DNA of 56,451 nt from Candidatus Binatia bacterium (GTDB lineage Bacteria; Desulfobacterota; Binatia; UBA9968). Below are positions 7,775 through 32,596 of the stretch, piece after piece (the first letter of the stretch is position 1; each line of letters opens with the position of its first letter). The notes below the pieces were generated by a model. It searched no databases, was not told the origin of the DNA, and saw only the letters and a program-made list of their open reading frames with translations. The position numbers and the translations under genes are program-made. Location: assembly GCA_041490745.1 (NCBI GenBank), contig JBGPTS010000001.1, positions 1 through 56,451 of the forward strand, read 5' to 3'.

Positions 7775-7781
7775 CGCACGC

Positions 7782-8894: not shown

Positions 8895-9010
8895 GGCATT
8901 TATTTATCACGGACGGAGATCGGAATACCACGGCCCGTCTTGACAACCGGCGGTCGCAAGATTAAGAACGATCCAGCCGAAAGACTTCGATCGGCTTTTT
9001 ACGTTGCAAA

Positions 9011-9814: not shown

Positions 9815-9833
9815 AAATAAAAGGAGTTTACTT

Positions 9834-10817
9834 ATGAATGGAAGAAAGTTTTTCACCGTCTTGCTGCTGGCCGCGGCTATTTTAGGCGCCGCCCGGGGAA
9901 GCGCCCCGGCTCAGGAACTGAAAAAGATCAAGCACGGATATGTCGCCGAGCCGGGATATTACTGGGACGTCTTTCAGGCTCAAGCCAATGGTTTTTTCAA
10001 AGCCGAAGGGCTGGACGTTGACTCGACGCGCTTCGACGTGACGTCCCAGGCGGTTACGGCGCTTGTGACCGGAGCGATCAACATCGCCAGTCCCACGCCC
10101 GATGTCGCCATGCTGGCCACGATCAAAGGACAGGGAGACGTGATCATCGTCAGCAATGAGATCCGTTTGCCGACGTGGGATTTGCTGGTGCAACCGGAGA
10201 TCAAGACGTACGCGGAAATAAAGGGCAAGGTGCTGGGCGTGTCGCAGCTCCAATCGGCGAGCACGCTCAACCTGCGCCAGCTCTTGAGAAAGAACGGAGT
10301 CAAAGACAACGAGTACAATATCTTGCAAGTGGGCGGCTCCGGCAAGCGTTATGCGGCCATCCAATCCAAACAAATCGCGGGGGCGCTGCTCACCGAGCCG
10401 GTCAACTTCGAGGCGATGGATGCGGGCTTCCGAAAATTGGGCGGCGTGTACGAGGCGTCCGTCGTTCCCAGCGCCGTCATTACCGTGTCGCGCGCGTGGG
10501 CCAAAGCGAACGAGAAAATTCTCGTCGGCTTTCTGCGCGCCGTCTATCGCGCCCAAGACTGGATCAACAACCCCAAGAACAAGAAAGAGGCCGTGGATCT
10601 CATGGTCGAGCTGAGCAAGGCCCAGCGGACGTCGGTGGAGAGAACTTACGACAAGTACGTCTCCGACTTGAAAGTCTACAACCGCGGAGACATCAACGCG
10701 GAGGTGATCAAGAAAACGCTCGAGGACATGGTCGAGATCGAAGCCCTCTCGAAACCGATCCCCGACCCGAACAATTTCCTCGACTTGAGTTTCCGGCAGA
10801 AAGCGCTCTCCAAGTAA
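9834..10817 (+). CDS. ABC transporter substrate-binding protein (NMT1/THI5-like)
   Basis: Signal peptide MNGRKFFTVLLLAAAILGAARGSAPAQ. NMT1-like body, flanked by two NitT/TauT permeases. Confidence 0.85.
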   Translation: MNGRKFFTVLLLAAAILGAARGSAPAQELKKIKHGYVAEPGYYWDVFQAQANGFFKAEGLDVDSTRFDVTSQAVTALVTGAINIASPTPDVAMLATIKGQGDVIIVSNEIRLPTWDLLVQPEIKTYAEIKGKVLGVSQLQSASTLNLRQLLRKNGVKDNEYNILQVGGSGKRYAAIQSKQIAGALLTEPVNFEAMDAGFRKLGGVYEASVVPSAVITVSRAWAKANEKILVGFLRAVYRAQDWINNPKNKKEAVDLMVELSKAQRTSVERTYDKYVSDLKVYNRGDINAEVIKKTLEDMVEIEALSKPIPDPNNFLDLSFRQKALSK

Positions 10818-10877
10818 TCGCGCCGGCGGCGCGCCGGGAAGTTTCTTTCCGGCGCCCCGCGCCCGCCAGAGCCTCCC

Positions 10878-11705
10878 ATGGCCCGACCAGAGACCACCGC
10901 CGTTACCGCGGAGATTTTCGATTTCGATCGCGCCGGCCTTTTTGGCCGGCATCGCGCCCGGATTCGCGGCGCGGTCACTTTTCTGTGGCTCGCGCTTCTT
11001 TGGGAGGCGGCGGCCTGGTACGTCGTGCGGGATGAAAGAATTCTCGCCCCGTTCAGCAAGGTCGTCGTGGCGCTCTTCAATCTGTTTCGGACCGGGGAGA
11101 TCTGGAAGCACCTTTACGTCAGCGGTTACGAATTTGTCGTCGGATTTTTGTTGGCGTCGCTGATCGGTGTCACGCTCGGCTTTGTGATGGGAACGGTCCG
11201 CGCCGTTCGCGAATATGCGGACCCGTGGGTCGCCGGCCTCTATTCCGCTCCGCTGGTCGCGCTGGCTCCTCTTTACATCATGTTCTTCGGCGTCGGCATC
11301 GCCGCCAAGGTCGCGCTCGTCTTCAGCGTGGCGGTTTTTCCGATCGTCGTGAATACCTTCGCCGGAGTTTACTCCGTGGATCCGAACCTGGTGGAAGTCG
11401 CGCGCTCCTTCAACGCCTCGCGCGCGCAAGTGTTGTTCAAAGTCCTCGTTCCCTTCTCGCTCTCTTACGTCGTGACCGGGCTGCGCCTCGGCGTCGGGCG
11501 CGGCTTGACCGGAGTCGTCGTCGGAGAGTTCTTTTTCGCCAATGCCGGGCTCGGGTTTCTCGTCGCGCTGGCCGGCCAGACTTTCAACACGCCGCTTCTG
11601 TTCGCGGGGATTCTCGTCTTCGCCGTCGCCGGAGTGGCGATCACGGGCGGGCTCAAGCGCCTGGAGAAAAAATTGGCGCCGTGGCGGAATTTGGCAAACG
11701 AATAG
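10878..11705 (+). CDS. ABC transporter permease (NitT/TauT family), paralog of 9011-9814
   Basis: EAA-like region SFNASRAQVLFKVLVPFSLSYVVTGLRLG. Clear paralogy to the upstream permease. Confidence 0.85.
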   Translation: MARPETTAVTAEIFDFDRAGLFGRHRARIRGAVTFLWLALLWEAAAWYVVRDERILAPFSKVVVALFNLFRTGEIWKHLYVSGYEFVVGFLLASLIGVTLGFVMGTVRAVREYADPWVAGLYSAPLVALAPLYIMFFGVGIAAKVALVFSVAVFPIVVNTFAGVYSVDPNLVEVARSFNASRAQVLFKVLVPFSLSYVVTGLRLGVGRGLTGVVVGEFFFANAGLGFLVALAGQTFNTPLLFAGILVFAVAGVAITGGLKRLEKKLAPWRNLANE

Positions 11706-11721
11706 AATTTTCAGCGGCTGT

Positions 11722-12513
11722 CTAGTCGCCGTGGGCGACGGATTCGAGCACGTCGGCTTCGATTAATTTCCAGATCGCACTCACGTAAGCCAAAAACTCG
11801 GGCGTCCGCTTGACGGCGAGACTTCTCGGGCGCGGCAGGTCGACGCGGATGTCGGCTTTGATCGTCGCAGGCCGCGCCGAAAACACCACCACGCGGTCGG
11901 CGAGATACACCGCTTCGTCGATCTGGTGCGTGATAAAGATCACCGTCTTCTTTCGGCTCCACCAGACCTTGAGCAGCTCCAGTTGCATCACTTCCCGGGT
12001 TTGCGCGTCGAGAGAGGCGAACGGCTCGTCCATTAAAATAATCTCCGGATCGACCGCGAGCGCGCGCGCCAGATTGACGCGCTGTCTCATCCCGCCCGAC
12101 AGCTCGTGCGGATAATGCGATTCGAAACCGCCGAGCCCGACCAATTTGATCAGCTCGCGCGCCTTGGCATAGCGGTCGCCGCTTTCGGTTCCTTTGACTT
12201 CCAGCCCGAACCCCACGTTGTCGAGCACGGTGCGCCATGGATAGAGCGAATCCGCCTGGAAGACGAACGCGCGGTCGTAACCGGGACCGGCGATCTCGCC
12301 GCCGTTGATGTAGATCTGCCCGGAAGTCGCGGGAATCAGCCCGTCGATGATTTTGATAAACGTCGTCTTACCGCAACCGCTCGGCCCCACGACGCAGACG
12401 AACTCCTCGGCGCGAACGTCGAGGTCGATGTCTCTGAACACTGTGACGTCGCCGCGATTGCGGCCCTGATAGGCCTTGCAAAGTTTCCTCACCGATACTT
12501 TGGCGTGATTCAT
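11722..12513 (-). CDS. ABC transporter ATP-binding protein (NitT/TauT family)
   Basis: Walker A GPSGCGKTT, signature LSGGMRQR, Walker B ILMDEP. Confidence 0.9.
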   Translation of the reverse strand: MNHAKVSVRKLCKAYQGRNRGDVTVFRDIDLDVRAEEFVCVVGPSGCGKTTFIKIIDGLIPATSGQIYINGGEIAGPGYDRAFVFQADSLYPWRTVLDNVGFGLEVKGTESGDRYAKARELIKLVGLGGFESHYPHELSGGMRQRVNLARALAVDPEIILMDEPFASLDAQTREVMQLELLKVWWSRKKTVIFITHQIDEAVYLADRVVVFSARPATIKADIRVDLPRPRSLAVKRTPEFLAYVSAIWKLIEADVLESVAHGD

Positions 12514-12688
12514 GACCGGTCCGATTCGACGACGTTATGCGCCAATAACGTATAACGATCCCCTAGTCAACCGGCTCGTGCGCAAGGGCAACGTATCGAT
12601 AATTGTTTCCCGCAGAGTGGTCTGCTACCGTACACCGAGCGATTTAATTAACGCGGTAATGGACTCGAAGAGTCTGTCGTAATCGCGA

Positions 12689-14029
12689 ATGCCAATGGAT
12701 ATGACGACGCCGTCAACGGAGCGGCCGCCGAGCGGAGCGCCAGCCGCCTCCAACTTCCTTTTTATCTCCGAGCTCCTCGACCGTCCCGTTGAGGATGCTC
12801 TCGGCGAATCTATCGGACGGCTTGACGACCTGACCGTCGTCGTCACCGAGCCGTTCCCGCGCGTCCGCGACTGCATCATCCGGCAGCAATGGCCGAACGA
12901 TTTGAGGCTCGTCTGCCGCTGGAACGACATCGCCGACTTGCGGGGGGCGAAGATCCGCTTGGCGGTTCCGGTGACGCAGCTCATACCGGCGGCGCCGGGC
13001 GCCGCCGACGAGGTTCTCCTGCGGCGCGATGTTTTGGACAAGCAGGTCGTCGATACAAACGGGCTGAAAATAGTTCGCGTCAACGACATTCAATTCTTGG
13101 CAACGCCGTCCGAGACCAGGGCGGTCCATGTGGACGTCGGATTCCGCGGCCTCGCCCGCCGCCTGGGCGCCGAATCGTTTGTCGACGGAATCTTTCGTCG
13201 AGTTCGGCCGCGCGCGCACTATTTGAAATCCGAGAACCTGATCTCGTGGCGTTACATCGAGACGCTTTCGCCGGGAACTTCGCACCATCGCCTCCAGTTG
13301 AGCCTTTCGCAGGCCCAACTTCAGGCGCACCCGGCGGACGTCGCCGATCTCATCGCCGAGCTCGACCCGCCGCGGCGCTTGCGTTTGTTCCGCGCGCTCG
13401 ACCTGGATACCCGGGCGAAATCTTTGGCCAAGCTGCCGGTCGAAATCCGCGCGCGGCTGCTCGAAATGATTCCGGCGCATGAAGCGGCGGCCGTCATGGG
13501 AACGATGCCGCCGGATGAGGCGGCCGACATCCTGGCCGAGCTGCCTGCCGAAGCGCGCGTGCAGATCCTCGCGCTGATGACCCATGAGGAAGCGAGCGAA
13601 GTCAGAGACCTGCTCGCGTTTCCCGCCGGAACCGCCGGCGCGTTGATGAACACCGAGTTCATCACCCTCTCCGACAAGCTGACCGTGGGCGAAGCGTTGG
13701 AACAATTGCGCGCGTTGGCGCCTTCGGCCGAAACCATCTACTACATCTATGTCGTCAACGAGGCGCGGAGCTTGGTCGGTGTCTTGTCTTTGCGGCATTT
13801 GATCATCGAAGCGTCCACGACTCCGATTTCCCAGGTCATGCTGAAGCGACCGGTGCATGTCCAGCCGGACGATTCGGTCGCCGAATGCGCCTCTCTGGTC
13901 GCCAAGTATAAACTGCTCGCGCTGCCGGTCGTCAGACCCGATCACACGATGGCGGGCGTCATCACGGTCGATGACGTGTTCGGAGAAATCATCGATCAGG
14001 CCTGGATGAAAAAGTTTGCGCGTCGATGA
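12689..14029 (+). CDS. soluble PRC-barrel / MgtE N-terminal domain / CBS-pair protein (MgtE cytosolic module without the membrane domain)
   Basis: Two PRC-barrel-like segments (ISELLDRPVED..., VLDKQVVDTNGLKIVRVNDI) are followed by an MgtE_N-like helical region (DVADLIAELD...PPDEAADILAELPAE...). Then comes a CBS pair (ALMNTEFITL... VGVLSLRHLI... MAGVITVDDVF). No TM segments are present. Confidence 0.8.
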   Translation: MPMDMTTPSTERPPSGAPAASNFLFISELLDRPVEDALGESIGRLDDLTVVVTEPFPRVRDCIIRQQWPNDLRLVCRWNDIADLRGAKIRLAVPVTQLIPAAPGAADEVLLRRDVLDKQVVDTNGLKIVRVNDIQFLATPSETRAVHVDVGFRGLARRLGAESFVDGIFRRVRPRAHYLKSENLISWRYIETLSPGTSHHRLQLSLSQAQLQAHPADVADLIAELDPPRRLRLFRALDLDTRAKSLAKLPVEIRARLLEMIPAHEAAAVMGTMPPDEAADILAELPAEARVQILALMTHEEASEVRDLLAFPAGTAGALMNTEFITLSDKLTVGEALEQLRALAPSAETIYYIYVVNEARSLVGVLSLRHLIIEASTTPISQVMLKRPVHVQPDDSVAECASLVAKYKLLALPVVRPDHTMAGVITVDDVFGEIIDQAWMKKFARR

Positions 14030-20500: not shown

Positions 20501-22603
20501 ATGGAGTACACGATCGGCGTCGATATCGGCGGCACATTCACGGACTGCGTCGTGCTCGACGAGCAAGGCCTGCTCGTCGTCGGCAAGGCGCTTTCGACGC
20601 CAAGGGATTTTTCCGTCGGCGCGATGGACGCGGTGCGCGACGCGGCGCAAAATCTCGGACTCAAGAGCGAAGACGAGCTGATCCGCGCCGCAAGATTTTT
20701 CTTTCACGCCTGCACCATCGGCGACAATACTCTCGTCACACGCGCGGGCGCGAAGACCGGCCTCATCGCGACGCGCGGCTTCGGCGATGCGATCCTCATG
20801 ATGCGCGGCCTTACGGCCGAGGGCCTCACCGAGGTCGAAGCGGCTCACGCGTCCTCTCTAACCAAACCCGAACCCATCGTTCCGAAAACTTTCATCGGGG
20901 AGGTGGCCGAGCGCGTCGATTACAAGGGAACTATTTTGATACCGTTGAAGGCCGACGAGATCGACCGCGCCGTCGAGCCGCTGCTGGAAAAGGGCGTGGA
21001 ATCCATTGCGATCTGTCTTCTCTGGTCGATCGCCAATCCGAAGCACGAGAAAGAGGCCGCCGAGCTGCTGCGAAAAAAATATCCGAATCTGTATCTGAGT
21101 CTGTCCAGCGAAGTCGCGCCCTTCCTCGGCGAATACGAGCGCACGGCTACGACCGTCTTCAACGCCTACATCGGCCCGCGCATCTCGGCTTATTTGAATA
21201 ACCTCCAGCGCGTGCTCAGGAAAAAAAAGCTGCGCGACGAGCCGCTCATCATGCAGGCCTACGGCGGCGTGCTGAACGTCGGCGCGACCGCGGCCAACGC
21301 GGTCGGCACGATCGAGTCGGGGCCCGCCGCCGGCGTCGTCGGTAGTCGATATCTCGGAAAGCTGATCGGCGAAGACAACGTCCTCGCGACCGACATGGGC
21401 GGAACGACGTTCAAGGTCAGCGTCATTCATGACGGCGTGATCGAGAAGGACTACAACCCCGTCATCCAGCGCCACAGGATTTTATCGACCAAGATTTGGG
21501 TCGAATCGATCGGCGCGGGCGGCGGCAGCATTGCCTGGATCGACCCGGAGACCGGCATTCTCAAAGTCGGTCCGCAGGGCGCAGGCGCGAGCCCGGGGCC
21601 GGCGTGCTATCGATCGGGCGGCACCGAGCCGACCGTCTCGGACGCCGATCTCGTACTCGGATATTTGAATGAAAATTATTTTCTCGGCGGCAAGATTCGC
21701 CTCGACAAAAAAGCCGCCGAGAGCGCCGTCGCCGAAAAGATCGCCGCGCCGCTCGGTATGAGCGCGATCGAGGCCGCGAGCGGCATTTACAGAATCGCCA
21801 ACGCGCACATGAGCGATCTCATCCGCAAGGCGACGGTCGAGCGCGGCCACGATCCAAGAGAGTTCGTGCTCTTCGCTTTCGGCGGCGCCGCGCCCGTGCA
21901 CGCGGGCCGCTATGCGGGCGATCTCGGCGTCAAACGGGTGGTGATCCCGCTCACCGCTTCGGTCCACGGCGCCACGGGCCTGATCAGCTCCGACGTGCTC
22001 TATGAGTACGGCCGCTCGGATCACCTGATCGCGCCGTTCGATCTCCAACGGCTCAACCAAAACTTTTCCCCGCTCATCGCGCAGGCGCGGCGCGATCTCG
22101 TCGCCCGCGGTTTTCAGGACGCGGAAATGGAAATCGTCCGCAGCCTGGACATGCGCTATCGCTACCAGGTGCACGAGCTCACGCTCTCCGTTGCAACCGG
22201 AACCGGGGACCTTGAGGGACACGATTTGGACAGACTCTACGAAAATTTCCACGCGCTGTACGAGAAATCCTACGGCCGCGGATCCGGCTATCGCGAGGCG
22301 GGCATGGAAGTGATGACATTCAGGTTGACGGCGCGCGGGCGGCTCAAGAAGCCCAACATCGCGCGGCTCGCTCTCGACGGCAAAGATTCGGCCCGCGCGA
22401 TGAAATCGCTCCGGCCGGTTTACTTCGAGGAATATCGCGAGCCGGTGGAGACGGCGATTTACGAATTCGACAAATTGAAGCCGGGCAACGAACTCGCCGG
22501 CCCCGCCGTCATCGAGACACCGGTGACGACGATCGTCGTCAACCCGAAAGATCGCGCGACCATGGACGAGTTTAGAAATATTAGAATCGACCTGGAAAAT
22601 TGA
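20501..22603 (+). CDS. hyuA: hydantoinase/oxoprolinase A-type subunit (acetone carboxylase beta-like, ATP-dependent)
   Basis: N-terminal IGVDIGGTFTDCV and internal ATDMGGTTFKVS sugar-kinase/actin-fold ATPase motifs. The 700-aa length is typical of HyuA/AcxA-type subunits. Confidence 0.9.
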   Translation: MEYTIGVDIGGTFTDCVVLDEQGLLVVGKALSTPRDFSVGAMDAVRDAAQNLGLKSEDELIRAARFFFHACTIGDNTLVTRAGAKTGLIATRGFGDAILMMRGLTAEGLTEVEAAHASSLTKPEPIVPKTFIGEVAERVDYKGTILIPLKADEIDRAVEPLLEKGVESIAICLLWSIANPKHEKEAAELLRKKYPNLYLSLSSEVAPFLGEYERTATTVFNAYIGPRISAYLNNLQRVLRKKKLRDEPLIMQAYGGVLNVGATAANAVGTIESGPAAGVVGSRYLGKLIGEDNVLATDMGGTTFKVSVIHDGVIEKDYNPVIQRHRILSTKIWVESIGAGGGSIAWIDPETGILKVGPQGAGASPGPACYRSGGTEPTVSDADLVLGYLNENYFLGGKIRLDKKAAESAVAEKIAAPLGMSAIEAASGIYRIANAHMSDLIRKATVERGHDPREFVLFAFGGAAPVHAGRYAGDLGVKRVVIPLTASVHGATGLISSDVLYEYGRSDHLIAPFDLQRLNQNFSPLIAQARRDLVARGFQDAEMEIVRSLDMRYRYQVHELTLSVATGTGDLEGHDLDRLYENFHALYEKSYGRGSGYREAGMEVMTFRLTARGRLKKPNIARLALDGKDSARAMKSLRPVYFEEYREPVETAIYEFDKLKPGNELAGPAVIETPVTTIVVNPKDRATMDEFRNIRIDLEN

Positions 22604-22613
22604 GGAGAACCGC

Positions 22614-24437
22614 TTGGCTTCATCCGCGCAAAACGTGGACCCGATAACGTTCGAGATTTTGTCTCATCGCCTGTATCAGATCGCCAAGGAGATGGGCGCG
22701 ACGCTCGAACGCGTCGGCGGCACGGTCAACACGACGCAGCAGAAAGACTACATGGCCGCGCTCTACCGCGCCGACGGCGAGATCCTGTCGGCCGGGGAAT
22801 CCATCGGCATGCATATGGCCTGCGGCGGCTTCGCGGTGAAAAAAATTCTCGAACGCTTCGGACCGAACGGCGTCGCGCCCGACGACGTCTTTTTGCTCAA
22901 CGACCCCTACGTCGCCGCCGTGCACCAGTCGGATCTGTTCATGATCTCGCCGATTCACTACGAGGGCCGGCTGGTCGCGTGGAGCGCGACCTTCGTCCAT
23001 GTCATGGACATCGGCGCGCTGTCGCCGGGAGGCAACTCGCCGGGGGCGACGGAAATTTACCACGAGGGCATCAGGATACCGGGCATCAAGCTGATCGACC
23101 GCGGCGCGCTGAGACAAGACCTTTTCGACACGATTATCGGCATGACGCGCCAGCCGACGATGGTCGGCCTCGATCTCAAGTGCGAGATCGCGGCCAACAA
23201 CGTGGCGAAAACGCGCATGCGGAAAATGTTCGCGCAGTACGGCGCCGAGCTGATCGACGCCGTCACCCTCGATATGATCCGGCACTCCGAAGCCGTGCTC
23301 AGAAAGCGCATCGCGGAAATTCCCGACGGCGTCTGGAACGAGACCGGCGTTATCGAGGCGGAAGAAATCTGGAAGGTCAAACTCGTGTTAACAAAAATCG
23401 GCGACCGGCTCGTCTTCGATTTTACCGGCACCGATCCGCAGGCAAGCAGGGGCATCAACCTTCCTTTCCATGCAACCTTCGGCGTCTGCTTCAGCGCCGT
23501 GCTTCAGACGTTGGCGTACGACCTGCCGAAAAATCACGGCATATTTCGCCCGATCGAAGTCATCGCGCCCAAAGGAACTATTGTAAATCCGCTGCCGCCG
23601 GCGCCGGTCTCCATGAATACGACCTCCGGCGCGAAGATCGTCCTCTACGCCGCGAGCTCGACGTTGATGCAGGCGCTCGCGACGCACGAGCGGTGGAAGA
23701 GCGAGGTGATGGCGATGACCGTCGGCCGGCGCAACGTCCGCCACGCCGGCATCAACCAGTACGGAACTTACTACGTCTCGAATCTGTCGCAGACGCCGGT
23801 GGACGGCGGCGGCGCGAGATCGTTTCAAGACGGAGTGGACTCGGGCGGCGGCGTCAAGAGCTGCCCCAACGTCGAATGGATCGAAAGGAATTTTCCCGTG
23901 CTCTATCTTTTTCGCCGCCACGCGCGCGACAGCGCCGGCGCCGGCAAGTACCGCGGCGGCGCCGGCGTCGAGACCGCCTTCGCGATCAACGACGCGCCGG
24001 AGCGCAAGATCAAGGGGGTGGCCTATGGCGTCGTTGGTCTTAAAAATTCCGGACAAGGCGTCTTCGGCGGTTTTCCCGGCGCGCCGAGCGTTGTCGAGTT
24101 GTCGAAGAGCACGAAGTTGCGCGAATTGATAACGCACGGCGGCGCTTTAGACAATCTTCAGGAATTGGGCGGTCAAACGACCTCGCTGCCCTACTGCGAC
24201 TTTGAAATCACCGAAGAAGATGTCCTCTATACCCGGCAATCGAGCGGCGGCGGTTACGGGGACCCGCTCGAACGGGACTCGGGGATGGTGCGGAAAGACG
24301 TGATCTTGGGATTGGTTTCCGTCGGCGCGGCGCGCGAAGTCTATGGAGTCGTCGTGAATGGCGACCAGATCGACGCCGAAGCGACCGAACGGCTGAGAAA
24401 CGCCATGAGAGCGGAGAGAGTGAGACGCGGCGCATGA
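22614..24437 (+). CDS. hyuB: hydantoinase B/oxoprolinase-type subunit
   Basis: DPITFEILSHRL N-terminus and overall HyuB-like sequence. TTG start lies 10 nt after the hyuA stop. Confidence 0.9.
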   Translation: MASSAQNVDPITFEILSHRLYQIAKEMGATLERVGGTVNTTQQKDYMAALYRADGEILSAGESIGMHMACGGFAVKKILERFGPNGVAPDDVFLLNDPYVAAVHQSDLFMISPIHYEGRLVAWSATFVHVMDIGALSPGGNSPGATEIYHEGIRIPGIKLIDRGALRQDLFDTIIGMTRQPTMVGLDLKCEIAANNVAKTRMRKMFAQYGAELIDAVTLDMIRHSEAVLRKRIAEIPDGVWNETGVIEAEEIWKVKLVLTKIGDRLVFDFTGTDPQASRGINLPFHATFGVCFSAVLQTLAYDLPKNHGIFRPIEVIAPKGTIVNPLPPAPVSMNTTSGAKIVLYAASSTLMQALATHERWKSEVMAMTVGRRNVRHAGINQYGTYYVSNLSQTPVDGGGARSFQDGVDSGGGVKSCPNVEWIERNFPVLYLFRRHARDSAGAGKYRGGAGVETAFAINDAPERKIKGVAYGVVGLKNSGQGVFGGFPGAPSVVELSKSTKLRELITHGGALDNLQELGGQTTSLPYCDFEITEEDVLYTRQSSGGGYGDPLERDSGMVRKDVILGLVSVGAAREVYGVVVNGDQIDAEATERLRNAMRAERVRRGA

Positions 24438-25252
24438 CTTATCCGCTGAGAGAAAATCTGGAGCTTTTCACCGGAGCGGAAGGCGCGTCGATCCGCTGCG
24501 TGAGGTGCCGCCATATTTTTTGCCGCGCCGGCGAAGACTGGAAGCCGGCTTCCCGCAGTCGAATATTACCTCCGACCGCGGCAGGCCCCTTGATGAAGGA
24601 GGCGCACGGGAAATATGTTTTGCGGCAGACGACCTGCCCTTCTTGCGGCGTTCTACTCGACACCGAATTGATCGAAGAAACAACCCCGGCCGTCGAACCC
24701 AAGGAGAAACCGTCGAAAACACCGGAACCGGGTCCGCTGGAAGCGCGCAGCCGCGCGACGGCGATCTTGGTTCTCGACATGAGCGCCCGCTGCGAAGATC
24801 CCGCTCTCACCTGTCACGCCTTGCTGCCGGGACTCGCCGCCTTTCTTGAGAAGGCGCGCGCCGCGTCACTGCCGATTATTTTTTCCGTTTCCGCGTCGCA
24901 GCGCGGAACGCCGATGGAAAATGTCGCACGGCCGCTGCGCCGTCGGGAGAACGAGCCGGTGATTTATCCCGACGGCTTCGACAAATTCACCGGCGGCGCA
25001 TTGCAGAACATCCTGGAGCCGACGGGTATCAATACCGTGATTGTCACGGGCTCCGCCACCAATGTCGCGGTTCTCTACACGGCGACGACGGCCGCGCGCA
25101 TCTATCGCTATGAGGTCATTGTCCCCGTCGACGGCGTTAACGCGCGGACTCAGTACGCGCACGACTATTCACTGTACCAGTTGAGCGTGTTGCCGGGCGG
25201 AGTGCGCAAACGCATTCGCTTTACGACACTTGGGGCGATAACCTTCAGCTGA
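24434..25252 (+). CDS. fusion of an acetone-carboxylase-gamma-like zinc ribbon and an isochorismatase-fold hydrolase domain
   Basis: The N-terminus IRCVRCRHIFCRAGEDWK...TTCPSCGVLLDTELIE follows the AcxC pattern CxCxH..C...CPxCG. The C-terminus has isochorismatase-family features: LVLDMS (Asp), DKFTGGAL (Lys) and VIVTGSATNVAVLYTA. ATGA overlap with the hyuB stop. Confidence 0.8.
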   Translation: MTYPLRENLELFTGAEGASIRCVRCRHIFCRAGEDWKPASRSRILPPTAAGPLMKEAHGKYVLRQTTCPSCGVLLDTELIEETTPAVEPKEKPSKTPEPGPLEARSRATAILVLDMSARCEDPALTCHALLPGLAAFLEKARAASLPIIFSVSASQRGTPMENVARPLRRRENEPVIYPDGFDKFTGGALQNILEPTGINTVIVTGSATNVAVLYTATTAARIYRYEVIVPVDGVNARTQYAHDYSLYQLSVLPGGVRKRIRFTTLGAITFS

Positions 25253-25278: not shown

Positions 25279-27066
25279 GTGGAAAAAGCGGACGGCAGGC
25301 TGGTCGAAATTTTCGAGGAAGGCCTCGGCGCATGGGAAGCCGCCGCCGCGACGGCCGGCCTCGTCGAGCGCTCCTATTTCATTGCCGGCCATTCCGTTCG
25401 TCTGCTTTTCGCCGGCGGCGCGCTCGTCGAGCCGATCACGCGCGCGCTGGCGCATCATGGACCGTGCGTCGCGCCGCCCGAGCTTACGATTTATCTTGGC
25501 GACAGCTCTTCGACCGCCATCGACTTGCCGGCGCGGCTCGGCTTGCCGACGGAAGAAACCGGTCCGGCCGGATGGATGCACCGCGGCGCCCGCATGCGCG
25601 CCCGCTTTCAACCGGACTACGACTCGCTTCATATTTTGGATACCAGCCGCGACTTCGCCCTCTTCTGGACCGGCGACGCGCGCCGCATCCGCTTCTGGGA
25701 AAAGAGCGCGCCCCTGCTGCTGATCTTTCACTGGTGGATGGCGCTCCGGAGCCGCCATCTCGTCCATGGCGCGGCGATCGGCAAGCCGGACGGCGGCGTG
25801 CTGCTGGTCGGCAGAGGCGGCGCGGGAAAATCGACGACCGCTCTCGCCTGCCTTCGATCCGAGCTCAACTATGCCGGCGACGACTATCATCTGATCGCGC
25901 TCGATCCGGTTCCATTCGCGTTCAACCTGTATAACTCGGCCAAGATCGAGGCGGCCAGCCTCGGAGACTTTAAAACTCTGCGCGATTTCGTAGCCAATCC
26001 CGACGATCTGCCGGCGGAAAAAGCCCTCGTCTTCCTCCACGAATGCCTGCCGGAAAAACTTTCAGCGGGATTTCCGATCCGCGCCGTGCTCATGCCGCGT
26101 GTCGCCGGCTGGCGCGAGACCGCCATCGAACCGGCGTCGCCCGCCGCGGCGCTCGCCGCGCTCGCGCCGAGCACGCTCTTTCAACTGCGCGACCGCGACG
26201 AAGCCTCTTTCACGGCGATGGCGGCGCTGCTGCGGAAGGTGCCCTGCTACAGGCTGGATCTGGGGACGGATTTGACTCAAATCGCCCCCGCGATTTTGCA
26301 ACTGCTCTCGCGCGGCCCGGCCGCGCCGAAGCCGCGTCCGCTCGTCAGCGTCGTCGTTCCGGTTTACAACGGGGCGCGTTTTCTCGCCGCGGCGATCGAG
26401 AGCGCGCTTGCCCAGGATTACCGGCCGGTCGAAGTGATCGTCGTCGACGACGGCTCGGACGACGGCAGCGCGGCGATCGCGCGCTCTTTCGAGGGCGTCC
26501 GCTATGTCTATCAGAACAATCAAGGACCCGCCGCCGCGCGCAACGCCGGCATTCGCGAAGCGCGCGGCGAATTCATCGCCTTTCTCGACACCGATGATTT
26601 AATGCTGCCGAATAAAATCGGCGCCCAGGCGAATTATCTGTTGCAAAATTCTGGCGTCGGCTGCGCGCTTTCCGGCCGGGAAATTTTCTGCGAGCCCGGA
26701 GTCGAGCCGCCCGAGTGGTTGCGCGACGACGAGCGGCTGCGCGGAGAGTTTGCCGTAGGCGACGCCGGGTTGGAAGACTTGCGCGCGGGAGGGATGTCGT
26801 CGGTAATCGTTCGCCGCCAAGCGTTGGAGCGCGCCGGCGGTTTCGATGCGGAGCTGCGCCACGTGGAGGATATCGACTGGCTGCTGCGCGTTCGCGACGC
26901 CGGCGTCAAGATCGCCGTCCTGCCGCAAATTCTCTGGCGGCGGCGCATCCACGGCGGAAATTTGAGCTACCAAAGGGATCGCATCGAGCAGGCCTGGCTC
27001 ATGCTCATGCGGAAGCGGATCGACCGGCGCCGCGGAGCCGCCGATTTATCAGGGAGGCCATCGTGA
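25279..27066 (+). CDS. bifunctional HprK-related P-loop kinase-like domain (aa 1-345) fused to a family-2 glycosyltransferase (aa 354-595)
   Basis: LVHGAAIGKPDGGVLLVGRGGAGKSTTALACL (P-loop at 25810-25836) resembles the HPr kinase/HprK-related kinase catalytic core. From about 26338 the sequence is GT2-like: VSVVVPVYNGARFL...VVDDGSDDGS...FLDTDD. GTG start. Confidence 0.8.
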   Translation: MEKADGRLVEIFEEGLGAWEAAAATAGLVERSYFIAGHSVRLLFAGGALVEPITRALAHHGPCVAPPELTIYLGDSSSTAIDLPARLGLPTEETGPAGWMHRGARMRARFQPDYDSLHILDTSRDFALFWTGDARRIRFWEKSAPLLLIFHWWMALRSRHLVHGAAIGKPDGGVLLVGRGGAGKSTTALACLRSELNYAGDDYHLIALDPVPFAFNLYNSAKIEAASLGDFKTLRDFVANPDDLPAEKALVFLHECLPEKLSAGFPIRAVLMPRVAGWRETAIEPASPAAALAALAPSTLFQLRDRDEASFTAMAALLRKVPCYRLDLGTDLTQIAPAILQLLSRGPAAPKPRPLVSVVVPVYNGARFLAAAIESALAQDYRPVEVIVVDDGSDDGSAAIARSFEGVRYVYQNNQGPAAARNAGIREARGEFIAFLDTDDLMLPNKIGAQANYLLQNSGVGCALSGREIFCEPGVEPPEWLRDDERLRGEFAVGDAGLEDLRAGGMSSVIVRRQALERAGGFDAELRHVEDIDWLLRVRDAGVKIAVLPQILWRRRIHGGNLSYQRDRIEQAWLMLMRKRIDRRRGAADLSGRPS

Positions 27067-27773
27067 CCGAGCAGAGCGCTTTGGTAAGCGTGATCATCCC
27101 CGTCTATAACGGCGAGCGCTTCCTCGCGGCGGCAATCGAGAGCGCCGTCGCTCAGGATTACCGGCCGGTCGAAGTCATCGTGATCGACGACGGCTCGGAC
27201 GACGGCACGGCGGAGGTCGCACGGTCTTTCCCGCAAGCGCGCTATCTTTTTCAAACCAACCGTGGTTTGTCGGCCGCGCGCAACGCCGGCATCGAGGCTG
27301 CGCGCGGCGAGATTATCGCCTTCCTCGACGCCGACGACGTCATGCTGCCGAACAAGTTGACCGTCCAGGCCGAATATCTGCGCGACCGTCCGGACGTCGG
27401 GTGCGTCCTCTGTCGCCAGAAAATACTTTTGGAACCCGGCGCGGCCCTTCCGGCGTGGCTCCCGCCGGACCGGATTTTCGGCGATCCCGGCGGCAGCCCT
27501 CCGGGCTCGGCACTCGTTCGCCGCAGCGCAATCGAGCGAGCCGGCGGCTTCGATCCGGCCTATCGTCTGGCGGTCGGAATGGAGTGGCTCGGCCGCCTGC
27601 GTGACGCAGGCGTCAAGGTCGCCGTCGTTCCGGAAATCCTGATGCTGCGCCGCGTCCACGACTCCAACCTGTCGCACCAAAATCGAAAGCTGCGCGAAGA
27701 GCTGCTGCAAGGCCTCAAGGGCAAGATCGGGCGCGCGAGAGCGGCGCGCTCGACGCGCGGCGGAGGCTCTTGA
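27063..27773 (+). CDS. family-2 glycosyltransferase (paralog 2)
   Basis: VSVIIPVYNGERFLAAAIESAVAQDYRPVEVIVIDDGSDDGT...FLDADD. The GTG start overlaps the upstream TGA (GTGA). The listed ORF 26715-27773 is an over-extension. Confidence 0.8.
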   Translation: MTEQSALVSVIIPVYNGERFLAAAIESAVAQDYRPVEVIVIDDGSDDGTAEVARSFPQARYLFQTNRGLSAARNAGIEAARGEIIAFLDADDVMLPNKLTVQAEYLRDRPDVGCVLCRQKILLEPGAALPAWLPPDRIFGDPGGSPPGSALVRRSAIERAGGFDPAYRLAVGMEWLGRLRDAGVKVAVVPEILMLRRVHDSNLSHQNRKLREELLQGLKGKIGRARAARSTRGGGS

Positions 27774-28468
27774 TGTCGGCGCCGTCTCTCGTCAGCGTCA
27801 TCATCACGGTATACAACGGCGCACGCTACCTCGCCGCGGCGATCGAGAGCGTCTTTGCGCAAACGTATCAACCCGTTGAGCTTGTCGTCGTAGACGACGG
27901 GTCGGACGACGGCAGCGGGGAAATCGCGCGGAAATTCTTGCCTCGCCTGCATTACTTTTACTATCCGCGCGGAGGCATCGCCGCCGCACGCAATCGCGCC
28001 GTCGAGCTGGCGAGCGGCGAATTTTTTTCTTTTCTCGACGCCGACGATCTGTTTCCCGCCGACAGGCTGGAGCGTCAAATGACGGAGTTTGCGCACGGCC
28101 CGACGCTCGACGTCGTCTATGGCCACGTGAGAGAGTTTGTAAGTCCCGATCTCGACGAAGCCGCCGCAAGGCGTCTCCGGCGGCCGGCCGAACGGATTAT
28201 GGGACGGCTCCCCAGCGCCATGTTGGTCCGACGCGAAGCGTTCTTTTGCGTCGGCCTTTTCAATACCGGGCTCAAAGTCGGCATCGGCCTCGACTGGTCG
28301 GCACGCGCGAGCGAGCATAAGCTGAACAACGTGATCTTGCCGGAGATCGTCTTGCATCGTCGGTTGCACTCGGAAAACAACGGTCTGCGCGAAGTGGAGT
28401 CTCGCAATCACTACCTCCGGGTGCTCAAGTCCGCGCTCGACCGGCGCCGCGGTACGCGATCGACGTGA
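27770..28468 (+). CDS. family-2 glycosyltransferase (paralog 3)
   Basis: VSVIITVYNGARYLAAAIESVFAQTYQPVELVVVDDGSDDGS...FLDADD. ATGA overlap with the upstream stop. Confidence 0.85.
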   Translation: MMSAPSLVSVIITVYNGARYLAAAIESVFAQTYQPVELVVVDDGSDDGSGEIARKFLPRLHYFYYPRGGIAAARNRAVELASGEFFSFLDADDLFPADRLERQMTEFAHGPTLDVVYGHVREFVSPDLDEAAARRLRRPAERIMGRLPSAMLVRREAFFCVGLFNTGLKVGIGLDWSARASEHKLNNVILPEIVLHRRLHSENNGLREVESRNHYLRVLKSALDRRRGTRST

Positions 28469-28531: not shown

Positions 28532-28999
28532 ATGGCCGCGCGCTTTCGCATCAACCAACCTCACGTCTTGCACGAGACTATCGACGGAGAGGTCGTCATC
28601 ATCAACCTCGACACGGGGAACTACTACAGCCTTCGCAACAGCGGCGCCTCCGTGTGGAGCGCCATCGAAGGCGGCGCCGGAATGCAAGAGATCGCCGCCG
28701 CGTTCAGGCGCAAATACCGAGCGGATACGGACGCATTGCAGGACTTGCTGGCGAAATTCATCGGCCAATTGCAGAGCGAAGGGCTGATCGAGCCGTGCGA
28801 CGACTCCGAGGCGTCGGCGAAGCTCTATCCTGCCGGCGATGAGAGCGCGCCCACGCAACCGGAGCCGTTCGATCCGCCGGTGCTGGAAAAATTCGACGAT
28901 ATGCAGGATTTGATCCTGCTCGATCCGGTGCACGAAGTTGACGATGAAAAAGGCTGGCCCCACCCCAAGCGTTCCGGCAAGCGCGAGATCAAATCCTAA
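28532..28999 (+). CDS. PqqD-family protein (RiPP-recognition-element fold) with a roughly 65-aa acidic C-terminal extension
   Basis: HVLHETIDGEVVIINLDTGNYYSLRNSGASVWSAIEGGAGMQEIAAAFRRKYRADTDALQDLLAKFIGQLQSEGLIE matches the PqqD pattern of a beta-hairpin followed by a three-helix bundle. No pqqA/B/C/E genes are nearby. Confidence 0.8.
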   Translation: MAARFRINQPHVLHETIDGEVVIINLDTGNYYSLRNSGASVWSAIEGGAGMQEIAAAFRRKYRADTDALQDLLAKFIGQLQSEGLIEPCDDSEASAKLYPAGDESAPTQPEPFDPPVLEKFDDMQDLILLDPVHEVDDEKGWPHPKRSGKREIKS

Positions 29000-29030: not shown

Positions 29031-29861
29031 ATGCGCGCCTACGCCCAGACGAATCTCCAACTTTACGATCAGCTTTGCCGCGACGGTTATTCCGACCGCG
29101 ATATTTCCCTCGTCCGCTGCGCTTATGATCTCGCTATGCGCCTGTTCACCTGCCTCATGCTTCCCTCGGGCAAACTCTTCATCGACCACCTCGTAGGCAC
29201 GGCCAGTGTTCTCGCTGCTCTGCGCGCGCCGATCGAGGTCGTAGCCGCCGGTCTGATTCACGCGGCCTATTTCAACGGGGACTTCGGCACGATAAGAACC
29301 GGCGTCACCGACGCGAAACGCAAAGAGATTAGAAACAAGCTCGGCGCAAACCTGGAGGTATATGTCGCCCGATACCACGCCATGAGCTGGGACTCGAAGA
29401 CCATCCCGGCGATTCGCGACGGTGTCGGTGACCTCGACCGCATCGGGCGTTACGTTCTTTTGATCCGACTGGCGAACGAGCTCGAGCACCGGCTGGACTT
29501 CGCCGACGTCTACGCCGACAATGCGGAGTGGTTTCGGGCTTACAAGGAGCGCTACCTTCCCATGATAATCGACATGGCTAACGGGTTGGGCTTCCCTGCT
29601 TTGGCCGCGGAACTTGCGGAAGCGTTCAACGAAGCCGCCTCAGGAGAGATTCCGCCCGAAGCGCGGAGCCGGAGCGGCGAGCCGCGTTCGTACCTCGTCG
29701 CGCCCGAGTCTTATTGCAAGCGGCGCGGCCTCGCGCTCGCTCACGAATGCGCCGGCGCGATCCGTCGGCTACGCGTGGCCGTCGGTTTGCGGACAAGGCT
29801 TCGACGTCTAGCCGGCCGGTTTGCAAGCGGCAGGCGCGCCCTTGGTCATAGCCCGAGGTAA
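29031..29861 (+). CDS. HD-fold-like protein, degenerate metal dyad (H77-A78), paralog 1
   Basis: FIDHLVGTASVLAALRAPIEVVAAGLIHAAYFNGDFG resembles the RelA/SpoT-type HD hydrolase core (H...HD), but HD is replaced by HA. The start was chosen at ATG 29031 by alignment with paralog 2. Confidence 0.6.
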   Translation: MRAYAQTNLQLYDQLCRDGYSDRDISLVRCAYDLAMRLFTCLMLPSGKLFIDHLVGTASVLAALRAPIEVVAAGLIHAAYFNGDFGTIRTGVTDAKRKEIRNKLGANLEVYVARYHAMSWDSKTIPAIRDGVGDLDRIGRYVLLIRLANELEHRLDFADVYADNAEWFRAYKERYLPMIIDMANGLGFPALAAELAEAFNEAASGEIPPEARSRSGEPRSYLVAPESYCKRRGLALAHECAGAIRRLRVAVGLRTRLRRLAGRFASGRRALGHSPR

Positions 29862-29865
29862 CAGC

Positions 29866-30627
29866 ATGGAACGGCATCCCCAGACCTATATGCAGCTCTT
29901 CAATCTGCTTCAGCGGGAAAGCTACGGGGTCGATGAGCTCGTCCGCGTACGCGCTGCCTATGAACTCGCAATGCGGTTGTTTACCGGGTTTTTTATCGGC
30001 TCCGGGAGGACACAAATCTCCCACATTGTGGGCACCGCCGGTATTCTGGGCTCGCTCCGCGTTCCGGCGGAAGTCGTTGCGGCCGCACTGATACACAACG
30101 TCTACGAGAACGGCGACTTCGGCGACGGGACACACGGCGCCACGGAGGCAAGGCGGAAAGAGGTCAAGCATGCCGTCGGGAGCAACGTTGAAGGGTACGT
30201 TTACAGATTTTCCGCACTGCGGTGGGATCTAGAAACCATTCCTGCGATCCCCGATCGCGTCGATAGCCTCGATGCGATCGATCGCGGTGCGCTTTTGATT
30301 CGGTTGGCGGACCAACTCGAGCACCACCGGGATCTTGGCGGCTTTTACTATCATGCGGGAGTCCAGAGGTGCCGCGAGTTTGTCGAGCGCAACGGCGATT
30401 CGATGGTAGATTCAGCCGAGAAACTCGGTTTTCCCGCTCTTGCCGCCGAGCTGCGACAGGTTTTTCGAGAAACCCTTGAGGCTGATGTTTCGCCTGAGAT
30501 GCCGGGCTGCCGGCATTCGGGTCTCGTGCCGCCCCAATCATACCGCACGCGCATACCCCTACGCCTCCGCCAAAAGCTCGCGCGCGAGCTTCGCATCTTG
30601 CGTTGGGCTCTACTCTCCCCCGAGTAA
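29866..30627 (+). CDS. HD-fold-like protein, degenerate metal dyad (H77-N78), paralog 2
   Basis: ISHIVGTAGILGSLRVPAEVVAAALIHNVYENGDFGDG. Collinear with paralog 1 along the whole length, and starts 4 nt after its stop. Confidence 0.6.
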   Translation: MERHPQTYMQLFNLLQRESYGVDELVRVRAAYELAMRLFTGFFIGSGRTQISHIVGTAGILGSLRVPAEVVAAALIHNVYENGDFGDGTHGATEARRKEVKHAVGSNVEGYVYRFSALRWDLETIPAIPDRVDSLDAIDRGALLIRLADQLEHHRDLGGFYYHAGVQRCREFVERNGDSMVDSAEKLGFPALAAELRQVFRETLEADVSPEMPGCRHSGLVPPQSYRTRIPLRLRQKLARELRILRWALLSPE

Positions 30628-30628
30628 T

Positions 30629-31378
30629 ATGCGTGTCGTCGTCACCGGCGCAGCGGGTCGTATCGGGACTCAAATCGTTGAGGAGCTTTCCGAATCGCAC
30701 GAATTACGTCTTATCGACCGCCTGCCCGTGCCCGGGCGCGAATCGGTCGTGGCCGATCTCGTACGCGTCCGCCCGGGTTTCTTTCGCCGCCTATGGCACG
30801 CTTCCAGCCGTGCCCTTTGGGAGAAAACCTTCGAAGCCGCGGAGGTGGTCGTTCATCTCGCCGGCGAAGCTGATCCCGACGCGCCGCGGCGTCGTCACCG
30901 TCGCGACAATATAGTGGCAACGCGAAATCTCCTCGAGGCGGCAGCGCGCCACCGGGTGCGCCGCGTCGTATTTGCCAGCTCGAACTGGGTGGTGCGCGGG
31001 CAGGAGCAGGAATTGGCCCCGGCGTGTTATTCGCCGGAGGGACCGAAGATCGGCTCGGATGCTCCACCGCGGCCCGTAAACGCGTACGGCCTCTCAAAAG
31101 CGCGCGGAGAATCGGCCGGCCGCGCATTCGTCGATAGCGGGAAACTCCACTCGTTTGTCGCCGTGCGAATCGGCTCGTTTCTTCCCGCGCCGCCGGCGGA
31201 CGAGAGAATCCACCGCTGGATCGGCACGGACGATCTCCGAAGCCTGCTCAGGCGGTGCATCGAAGCGGAATTCGACGGCTTTCATGTCGTTTACGGAGTT
31301 TCCGCTCAATTGGAAACACCCTTCGATCTGTCGCACACGCGCCGCCTGCTCGGCTGGAAGCCGCGGCAGTTGCCGTGA
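30629..31378 (+). CDS. NAD(P)-dependent epimerase/dehydratase (extended SDR) family protein
   Basis: MRVVVTGAAGRIGTQIV Rossmann motif and catalytic YGLSK (YxxxK). The ATG lies 1 nt after the upstream TAA. The listed ORF 30440-31378 is over-extended. Confidence 0.85.
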   Translation: MRVVVTGAAGRIGTQIVEELSESHELRLIDRLPVPGRESVVADLVRVRPGFFRRLWHASSRALWEKTFEAAEVVVHLAGEADPDAPRRRHRRDNIVATRNLLEAAARHRVRRVVFASSNWVVRGQEQELAPACYSPEGPKIGSDAPPRPVNAYGLSKARGESAGRAFVDSGKLHSFVAVRIGSFLPAPPADERIHRWIGTDDLRSLLRRCIEAEFDGFHVVYGVSAQLETPFDLSHTRRLLGWKPRQLP

Positions 31379-31390
31379 TCCGTGGTCGCT

Positions 31391-32479
31391 TCATTTCTGC
31401 CGCGGATCGCGCAGGGCCGCGTCCGGCACTTTAAGCTCCCCGCGGCGCAAGAGCTTGACGGCGTTGACGAGGCAGCGCGCCGCGTTGCGCACCTCTTCGT
31501 GCAAATCCGTGTCTTGGTCGAGATCTTCGTGGCTGGTCGCGTACGGTTCGTAGTACCCGATATAGCTGCCGACCATTGCGCTGTAACCCGCGGGGATGAG
31601 GCCGATGTCCTGGAGCCAGTCCGTTAATATGCGCCGCAGATTCTCGACGCCCGCGGCGTCGCCGTGCACGACGACGGAAAAAACCCTTCCGGCGAGATGG
31701 CGCGGATAGTCCCAGCCCTTCAACTCCAATTCCTTCGCGCGCTGCGGATTTTTTCCGCCGGTGGAAGTCGGGTCGGGGTTGCCTCCGTCGGCGCAGACGA
31801 GCCGATCGATCATGAGCTTGAGCGTGCTCGGCGCCTGATACCAGTTCACCGGGCAGACGATCATCACGCCGTGCGCCGCGGCCCAGCGCGGATAAATCTC
31901 CGCCATCCAGTCGCCCGTCTGTCCCATCGCGTGGTTCGGATAGCACGAGCACGGCCAATTGCAGAGCGGCATCGCGGTCGAGACGCACGCCTTGCACGGA
32001 TAGATGACGCGGCCGTACTCCGACGTGAGGCGGCTGAGATCGAGAATATCCACGTCGAAGCCCGCTTCTTTCGCAATCGCCTTTTGCGCCATCGTCACGA
32101 GACGGAACGTTTTCGACATTTCTCCCGGACAGCTCTGGTCGCTGCGCGACGAGCCGTTGACGATCAGGATACGCGCGCGCGATTTGGGATCTTTTTGCTT
32201 TTTCTCGGCTTCGTGAATCGCCTTGCGCGTCTCCAGCCATTCCACCGGAAGCTCGAAGTTCGGATCGGCGAAACCGCGTCCCGCTACACGCACGCGCGGG
32301 CTCTTGCGGTACTTGTCGTATCCCTCCCACGCGGTCTCCAGGATTTTTTGAATTTCGCCGTCAACACCTTTGAATGCCGGATCGTAGAAGCGCGCGCGGA
32401 AGCGTTCGACGAACTCGTCTTTAGTTACTTGAGCGCTCGGCATGCCTTTTCGGACTTTGATCTTGGCGGGCTTGGCCAT
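31391..32479 (-). CDS. flavodoxin-fold NAD(P)H-dependent FMN reductase / iron-sulfur flavoprotein-like protein
   Basis: RILIVNGSSRSDQSCPGEMSKT and a Cys-rich CKACVSTAMPLCNWPCSC segment. ATG at 32479 is preceded by GGAGG with a 6-nt spacer. Confidence 0.8.
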   Translation of the reverse strand: MAKPAKIKVRKGMPSAQVTKDEFVERFRARFYDPAFKGVDGEIQKILETAWEGYDKYRKSPRVRVAGRGFADPNFELPVEWLETRKAIHEAEKKQKDPKSRARILIVNGSSRSDQSCPGEMSKTFRLVTMAQKAIAKEAGFDVDILDLSRLTSEYGRVIYPCKACVSTAMPLCNWPCSCYPNHAMGQTGDWMAEIYPRWAAAHGVMIVCPVNWYQAPSTLKLMIDRLVCADGGNPDPTSTGGKNPQRAKELELKGWDYPRHLAGRVFSVVVHGDAAGVENLRRILTDWLQDIGLIPAGYSAMVGSYIGYYEPYATSHEDLDQDTDLHEEVRNAARCLVNAVKLLRRGELKVPDAALRDPRQK

Positions 32480-32498
32480 CGAGCACCTCCGGGAAAAT

Positions 32499-32596
32499 AA
32501 GGACGAAGGATAAAGGATGACGGATGAAAAAGACAACTCTTTGTTCGGGATGACGGAGGCTTTTTTTTCATCCTTCCGCCCTCATCCCTCATCCTT
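32499..32596. repeat. intergenic purine-rich GGATGA(N)GG repeats in inverted orientation around a T8 tract
   Basis: aaggatgacggatga / ggatgacggagg on the left, then tttttttt, then catccttccgccctcatccctcatcctt on the right. Confidence 0.45.

Follow-up and report, generated by a model that had tools for sequence, protein, structure and literature searches.

Does the reading frame at positions 25279..27066 of a Candidatus Binatia contig encode a genuine fusion of a kinase resembling HPr kinase (HprK) with a family 2 glycosyltransferase (GT2), and what would such a pair of enzymes modify? The open reading frame (ORF) lies within a stretch of 56,451 nucleotides (GenBank assembly GCA_041490745.1, contig JBGPTS010000001.1, positions 1 to 56,451, forward strand; Bacteria, Desulfobacterota, Binatia, UBA9968), the whole of which is referred to here as the window. 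It opens a cassette that also encodes a PqqD-type RRE protein, RRE standing for RiPP recognition element and RiPPs being peptides that are made by the ribosome and modified after translation. The same fused ORF was found in an independent assembly and fused orthologues in relatives from unrelated samples, and the kinase, GT2 and RRE genes recur together in many phyla. By analogy with characterized kinases that act on peptides, the cassette probably decorates a peptide or protein with phosphate and sugars. We hold, with moderate confidence that extends jointly to the mechanism proposed below, that the ORF encodes a genuine bifunctional enzyme that arose by loss of the stop codon between two adjoining cassette genes.

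The fused reading frame and its two domains

The ORF begins with a GTG start codon, is preceded at a distance of 8 nt by a Shine-Dalgarno-like GGAAGG, and contains no internal stops. A first-pass annotation of the window had described it as a kinase-GT2 fusion within one ORF of 595 amino acids; this description was borne out, and the motifs it quoted lie at the residues it gave. The layout is as follows.

25279..27066, + strand: fusion ORF, encoding an HprK-like kinase, a linker and a GT2; 595 aa; first gene of the cassette
25279..26313, + strand: kinase module, residues 1-345; an N-terminal lobe (residues ~1-150) followed by a P-loop lobe
25756..25887, + strand: kinase catalytic core, with His163, the P-loop G178-T186 (K184, S185) and Asp201-Asp202
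26308..26340, + strand: Pro/Ala linker SRGPAAPKPRP, residues 344-354, running from a natural kinase C-terminus to a natural GT2 N-terminus
26338..27063, + strand: GT2 domain, residues 354-595, with DDGSDDGS, a DxD motif (FLDTDD) and VEDIDW

An independent Joint Genome Institute (JGI) assembly (L090) contains an identical ORF with the same neighbors; over 7.8 kb, it departs from the window sequence at 5 positions, and all of these fall outside the fusion gene. Full-length fused orthologues were recovered from other assemblies at 76, 70, 64, 60, and 60% identity, together with dozens at 32-37% from unrelated samples, and a genome from another genus of the same family (G015) carries a fused orthologue at 61% identity. 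Stand-alone kinases stop exactly at the start of the linker, and the GT2 part starts as stand-alone GT2s do. The DNA of the junction (26300-26340) is free of homopolymer runs, and the comparison with an independent assembly that had been recommended for this segment showed no frameshift or assembly join. An AlphaFold2 (AF2) model of the full fusion protein is confident across both domains (pLDDT 91.4, pTM 0.79). Both fused domains are real and, judged from their motifs, appear catalytically intact.

The kinase module is only distantly related to HprK at the level of sequence. Pfam Hpr_kinase_C (PF07475) matched weakly at residues 157-203 (E 0.004, 17.2 bits, below the cut-off of 33.3), and the Pfam scan of the fusion protein gave no match to Hpr_kinase_N, or to anything else, in residues 1-150. 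When a profile built from 59 family members was compared with the PDB, HprK structures were matched (1jb1, E 1.8e-6; 1ko7, 4e-6; 1knx, 5e-4), the solved HprK chains being the sole non-GT2 matches with E < 0.001. His163, the P-loop, and Asp201-Asp202 align with H...GDSGVGKSE...ADD of Lactobacillus casei HprK (1jb1) with identical spacing, and we take His163, Lys184, and Asp201/202 to be the equivalents of HprK His140, Lys161, and Asp178/179. These residues, contained in the motifs HLVHGAAIGK (160-169), GRGGAGKST (178-186), and YAGDDY (198-203), are invariant or nearly so in family alignments. Phosphoenolpyruvate carboxykinase (PEPCK) and the catalytic domain of HprK are known to belong to a single P-loop fold superfamily. 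Because a Foldseek search with the full-length fusion model returned GT2 proteins only, among the matches listed, the kinase module was modeled by itself (pLDDT 92.2, pTM 0.91). Its best structural match was ATP-PEPCK over the whole length (E 4e-11, probability 1.00, TMq ~0.5, ~400 columns), and HprK chains were not among the best 50 matches listed. The HprK-like fold assigned in the first-pass annotation is upheld at the level of the PEPCK/HprK P-loop superfamily, with PEPCK as the top match among those listed; the module is two-lobed and PEPCK-like.

A custom hidden Markov model (HMM) of the family, KIN, matched the kinase module with E 2.8e-151. The NCBIfam models for HprK-related kinases A and B matched weakly (E 1e-7 and 6e-6) and far under their cut-offs; for kinase A (TIGR04352), the match was 31.3 bits (E 1.1e-7) and covered residues 268-329 only, against a cut-off of 200 bits. 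The module shares with HPr kinase/phosphorylase (HprK/P; 1jb1, 1ko7, 1knx) the His...GxxGxGKS...DD arrangement with identical spacing and the PEPCK-like P-loop superfamily, but it has a sub-threshold Pfam score, no Hpr_kinase_N domain and a different N-lobe, and we saw no sign of an HPr substrate or of carbon catabolite control. Likewise, the combination of an HprK-like kinase with a PqqD-family protein, with weak but significant matches, recalls TIGR04352/TIGR04353 and ScmC/ScmD (PF27840, TIGR04248), whereas the scores (31 versus 200 bits for the kinase, 23.6 versus 35 bits for the PqqD protein) are those of a sister family. The model and profile comparisons place the kinase in a large sister family of HprK that has a predicted PEPCK-like two-lobe fold and is distinct from HprK proper. 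Because the defining features of each class fail, we do not assign the fusion protein to HprK/P proper, TIGR04352, the class of linear polyphosphorylated peptides (LPPs) or the lasso class; in its predicted activity, it most resembles the tailoring kinases of these classes.

The C-terminal part is a complete, short GT2 of the classical type. Pfam Glycos_transf_2 (PF00535) matched at residues 357-479 (E 1.5e-33, 116.5 bits against a cut-off of 23.3), and the three motifs expected of the family are all in place, with a DD for nucleotide binding, a DxD, and an acidic base toward the C-terminus (DDGSDDGS, 390-397; FLDTDD, 435-440; VEDIDW, 529-534). Foldseek matches included WrtF, 6p61, K4CP, and SpsA (E ~1e-15 to 1e-12), and heparosan synthase and TarS/TarP were likewise matched. 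The family profile also matches polyprenyl-phosphate GT2s, such as DPMS (5mlz, E 2.7e-11) and ArnC (~4e-10).

A recurrent cassette and repeated fusions

A profile search of 1.84 billion representatives (threshold E <= 1e-30) placed the kinase in a family of 2,945 clusters at 50% identity, and 7 of the best 150 clusters had the length expected of a fusion, whichever domain came first. The fusion, whose spread the first-pass annotation had proposed to examine, is common in public data: among the 120 best homologue clusters of the fusion protein, 58 are KIN-GT2, 44 are KIN alone, 10 are GT2-GT2, 4 are GT2-KIN, 3 are KIN-GT2-GT2, and 1 is GT2-GT2-GT2. Within this large, uncharacterized family, the kinase-GT2 fusion is the less usual architecture; database entries for the family are plentiful but bear generic names, 'GT2 family glycosyltransferase' among them. 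A literature search on HprK-related kinases or PF14907 in combination with PqqD turned up no description of the cassette outside Bacillota, and none of the kinase-GT2 fusion.

We fetched 80 species-level genomic loci and annotated them with HMMs built for this analysis. These loci span Cyanobacteria, Acidobacteriota, Chloroflexota, Actinomycetota, Planctomycetota, Proteobacteria, Verrucomicrobiota, Chlamydiota, Patescibacteria, and others. The canonical order is a gene for a PqqD-type protein with a conserved tail, then the kinase, one to five GT2 copies, sometimes an ABC exporter, and then NTP_transf_5. In 60 of 76 loci, the gene immediately upstream of the kinase is that for the RRE, and in 53 of 75 the one immediately downstream is a GT2. 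If only loci with flanks of at least 6 kb are counted, a GT2 is located within 8 kb of the kinase in 41/41, PqqD in 40/41, and NTP_transf_5 in 39/41.

The domains have been joined repeatedly. On a FastTree phylogeny of 187 kinase domains, 8 changes of fusion state are required, and well-supported branches force at least 7 of them; the count is approximate. A second locus of G015 (L095; G015:C64:24000-36000, reverse strand, ~5231-8479) contains a kinase ORF and a 733-aa GT2-GT2-GT2 ORF in the same frame with one stop between them, flanked by a gene for a tailed PqqD protein before the pair and NTP_transf_5 after it; to judge from its reading frames, this state is one point mutation away from fusion. 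The RRE is itself fused to the kinase in two loci (L076, 1482-3401; L082, 8675-10774), with ~110 residues and no stop between the domains; in L076, the inter-domain residues resemble a second PqqD-like segment. Such fusions are classic Rosetta-stone evidence and support the view that RRE, kinase, and GT2 would work as one unit. The proposal that both fused domains act on the same substrate gains strong support from the adjacency of kinase and GT2, from two loci in which the kinase-GT2 pair is duplicated (L007 and L008), and from the repeated fusions in both orders, which suggest rather than prove a shared substrate.

The duplicated pairs of L007, a soil actinobacterial-type locus, are divergent around a Wzx-type flippase gene (5600-7403 on the - strand and 9001-14029 on the + strand) and are accompanied by two NTP_transf_5 genes; the layout of L008 is identical. 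Sulfotransferase genes are embedded in the cassettes of L009 (8028-8858), L014, L030, L069, and L078, a hint that some lineages make sulfated products. The GT2s adjoining kinases were also considered as one orthologous clade. This was rejected: they are clustered beyond chance (29 changes against 48.8 when shuffled), yet they do not form a single clade.

Candidate acceptor and proposed chemistry

In the window, the cassette consists of seven tightly packed genes, namely the fusion, two further GT2s (GT2b and GT2c), the PqqD-type RRE protein, two DUF6817/HD_4 proteins, and a short-chain dehydrogenase/reductase (SDR). The genes downstream of the fusion are the following.

27063..27773, + strand: GT2 paralogue b; its start overlaps the stop of the fusion ORF; same clade as the fused GT2
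27770..28468, + strand: GT2 paralogue c; other GT2 clade than the fused GT2
28532..28999, + strand: PqqD-type RRE protein, 155 aa; RRE at residues 20-86, a variable linker and a conserved tail
28862..28984, + strand: conserved tail of the RRE protein, F-x-x-P-x-L-E-K-x-x-D-M-Q-D-L-I-L-L-D-P-V-H-E-V...G-W-P
29031..29861, + strand: DUF6817/HD_4 protein 1, in the place held by NTP_transf_5 in most cassettes
29866..30627, + strand: DUF6817/HD_4 protein 2
30629..31378, + strand: SDR/NAD-dependent epimerase-dehydratase family protein; last cassette gene

The RRE protein, a member of a family of 769 clusters, matched PF05402 (E 1.2e-13) and lasso_PqqD_Bac (E 5.7e-12; 45.6 bits, below the 80-bit cut-off). 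Ser33 and Thr28 of its RRE domain are invariant or nearly so. All members of the family have the tail, preceded by a variable linker. In the tail, the Phe of FxxPxL is present in 147 and the Leu in 148 of 155 sequences, eleven tail positions are invariant in an alignment of 33 sequences, and the spacing of FxxPxL is that of [Y/W]xxPx[L/V/I], the motif to which the RREs of lasso and LPP systems bind. The tail may serve as a leader in cis, in which case the protein would be scaffold or substrate for itself; alternatively, it may be a peptide on which the enzymes dock.

Two known groups of clusters provide the closest parallels. HprK-like kinases with discrete RREs phosphorylate one Ser, often repeatedly; the peptides concerned are paeninodin-type lasso peptides and LPPs (PMC13381572). 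The LPP clusters of Bacillota encode the LppA precursor, the HprK-like kinase LppK, the discrete RRE LppB, the SpI peptidase LppS, the MsbA-like exporter LppD, and the NTP transferase LppN, which was inactive and for which a missing partner has been postulated (Popov et al., Nat Commun 2026, PMC13381572). The phosphate of pseudomycoidin receives one or two hexoses, for which the NTP-transferase-like PsmN is required, the authors leaving undecided whether PsmN is a glycosyltransferase (PMC6993621). Which enzyme adds sugar to the phosphate remains the question in the LPP and lasso field, as PsmN is not a recognizable glycosyltransferase.

The cassette resembles LPP clusters in having a discrete PqqD-type RRE and an HprK-like kinase, in the NTP_transf_5-type transferase and MsbA-like ABC exporter of most relatives, in the absence of a lasso cyclase, in the [Y/W/F]xxPx[L/V] motif, and in having glycosyltransferases nearby. 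It differs in that it has neither an SpI peptidase nor a separate precursor, in that the leader-like motif is on the RRE protein's own tail, and in that one to five dedicated GT2s form part of the core, adjoining or fused to the kinase, across many phyla instead of in Bacillota alone; the window variant, moreover, has neither NTP transferase nor exporter. With paeninodin and pseudomycoidin, it shares an HprK-family kinase of the type that acts on a Ser of a ribosomal peptide (PadeK, PsmK), and a sugar on the phosphate fits the chemistry that we propose for the kinase-GT2 pair. No recognizable glycosyltransferase is encoded in the pseudomycoidin cluster, whereas the kinase of the present cassette has a classical GT2 joined to it; in addition, the cassette contains no cyclase or B2 protease, and the genome itself has no B2 homologue. 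As for polyprenyl-phosphate GT2s (DPMS, GtrB, ArnC), these are GT-A enzymes that transfer sugar from a nucleoside diphosphate (NDP)-sugar to a phosphate monoester and are matched by the family profile with E 1e-5 to 3e-11, but they have membrane-associated helices and lipid acceptors, whereas the GT2 domain here is short, soluble, and nearer to glycan-extending GT2s. Because the kinase and GT2 are recurrently fused, in both orders, and nearly always adjoin each other in the ~2,900 clusters of the family, the GT2 is a candidate for the partner in the sugar-on-phosphate step.

RRE-guided phosphorylation of a Ser followed by glycosylation, possibly on the phosphate, is the most likely chemistry by analogy with these systems. 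The RRE protein would recruit or present a peptide segment, as the homologous lasso and LPP RREs suggest. The kinase would then use ATP to phosphorylate a Ser hydroxyl through its His163/Lys184/Asp201-Asp202 site, as is the case for PadeK, PsmK, and LppK. The fused GT2, presumably an inverting GT-A enzyme using its DxD motif, a metal ion, and an NDP-sugar, would take the kinase product as its acceptor, and the first sugar would most plausibly be placed on the phosphate, as in polyprenyl-phosphate GT2s and phospho-hexosylated pseudomycoidin. GT2b and GT2c would extend the glycan and the SDR would tailor the nucleotide sugar, while the fusion itself would channel the phosphorylated intermediate between the two active sites. 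Starting from domains, catalytic residues, gene linkage, and fusions that are seen directly in the sequences, we infer that the acceptor is a peptide, in what order the reactions proceed, and which linkage results. The fusion offers a compact single polypeptide in which the idea of a kinase followed by a glycosyltransferase can be tested.

Several results weigh against this proposal. An all-against-all BLAST of 5,783 small ORFs, taken from 87 cassettes and their surroundings, revealed no recurrent precursor family, only low-complexity or off-frame clusters, and no recurrent peptide with [YWF]xxPx[LIVFAM] was found within 700 nt upstream of 82 PqqD genes. When the six-frame ORFs of the genome were searched with an HMM of the tail, no second tail-like peptide was found, the PqqD protein being the sole match. 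The tail holds no invariant Ser or Thr. The residue before its DM was considered as a universal phospho-acceptor, as it is Thr in 113 and Ser in 7 of 155 sequences (77% Thr or Ser); this was rejected, since it is Asp in 18 and Glu in 14 (21%), including Asp in the present protein and Asp or Glu in the window clade, where the kinase residues are intact. We read this residue as a probable helix N-cap rather than a universal phosphosite. The best structural matches of the GT2 (WrtF, K4CP, heparosan synthase, TarS/TarP, SpsA) are glycan extenders and not GT2s with phosphate acceptors, and the NTP_transf_5 and ABC exporter genes that are usual in relatives are absent from the window cassette.

No leader peptidase or cyclase was found among the cassette genes, and the B2 protease (PF13471) is not in the genome, in which SpI and a cyclase were not sought outside the cassette. 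The best acceptor candidate in the locus is the leader-like tail of the RRE protein, unless the acceptor is a peptide encoded elsewhere. That the cassette is a self-contained system for protein phospho-glycosylation, distributed across phyla, in which the RRE protein, with its own FxxPxL motif and invariant tail, is scaffold or acceptor and the kinase-GT2 pair builds Ser-O-P-sugar on it, is a doubtful extension of the proposal, to which we give tentative credence. If it were true, bacteria would have an equivalent of the protein phosphoglycosylation of eukaryotes, and the missing glycosyltransferase partner of the paeninodin/LPP class would have been identified. The tailoring logic is not confined to Bacillota, and most phyla run it with no precursor gene that can be recognized. 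What, then, is modified?

The strongest competing explanation is that the cassette makes a phosphate-containing glycan or glycolipid, with the kinase phosphorylating a sugar or a lipid-linked intermediate of the GT2s and the tailed PqqD protein acting as a scaffold. Such a role would account for the failure to find a precursor gene in 80 loci, and it fits the superposition of the kinase module on PEPCK, a small-molecule kinase (TMq ~0.5), as well as the Wzx-type flippase, sulfotransferases, and up to five GT2s of some relatives, which are reminiscent of polysaccharide loci; the LPP and paeninodin clusters of Bacilli sit within capsule loci, too. It leaves unexplained, however, why all but one of 41 full cassettes have PqqD/RRE, in some cases fused to the kinase, when RREs are known only as peptide binders. 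Every characterized member of the HprK family acts on a Ser of a protein or peptide (HPr, PadeA, PsmA, LppA), and the GT2s here are short, soluble proteins for which the model shows no membrane segments. We consider the glycan explanation unlikely on this balance, though it has some support.

A still less probable alternative is that the kinase is regulatory, as HprK/P is, so that phosphorylation switches the fused GT2 or the RRE protein and the glycosyl acceptor is not its product. HprK/P is indeed a regulatory Ser kinase/phosphorylase with the same His/P-loop/DD site, and the near-invariance of Ser33 and Thr28 would offer targets on the RRE domain, but the related RiPP kinases are biosynthetic, and one-to-one adjacency of kinase and GT2 with repeated fusion in both orders fits consecutive steps of a pathway better. 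In addition, a look at the GT2 domain, without detail, identified no conserved Ser or Thr. Lastly, a fusion created by error, through a lost stop or the joining of two genes in sequencing or assembly, is so improbable that we all but dismiss it: the draft genome was assembled from a metagenome, in 254 contigs (85% complete), and a near relative (P0007) has a stand-alone 348-aa kinase at 73-74% identity, but the second assembly has the identical ORF despite single-nucleotide differences elsewhere, dozens of fused orthologues come from unrelated samples and one from another genus, the linker has no homopolymer run, and both domains are modeled confidently.

The cassette variant of the window and its neighbors

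The proposed phosphorylation and glycosylation system occurs in the window in an unusual form. The window clade is a variant in which the gene order is rearranged, NTP_transf_5 and the exporter are missing, and two HD-like proteins are present instead. NTP_transf_5 was not found anywhere in the genome, which is 85% complete. DUF6817 was located within 8 kb of the kinase in 0 of the 41 loci with flanks of at least 6 kb, and L029 alone had one copy nearby. In the tandem DUF6817/HD_4 pair, the second His of the HD-type motif precedes Ala (LIHAAY) or Asn (LIHNVY) and not Asp. The same seven-gene cassette is present in L002/L003, where the fusion is 60% identical and the upstream genes are unrelated.

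Upstream of the cassette, separated from it by a 26-nt gap, positions 20501-25252 encode hydantoinase A, hydantoinase B, and a protein with a Zn-ribbon and an isochorismatase fold. These genes were considered as cassette members and rejected, as the L002/L003 cassette begins at the fusion gene. Because they are not upstream of that orthologous cassette, the linkage of the hydantoinase and isochorismatase-like genes to the cassette appears to be lineage-specific. At the other end, a gene for an FMN_red flavoprotein (31391-32536, - strand) converges on the end of the cassette. Its homologue in L002/L003 is also downstream and on the opposite strand, ~2.2 kb off with other genes between, suggesting either conserved synteny or an accessory gene.

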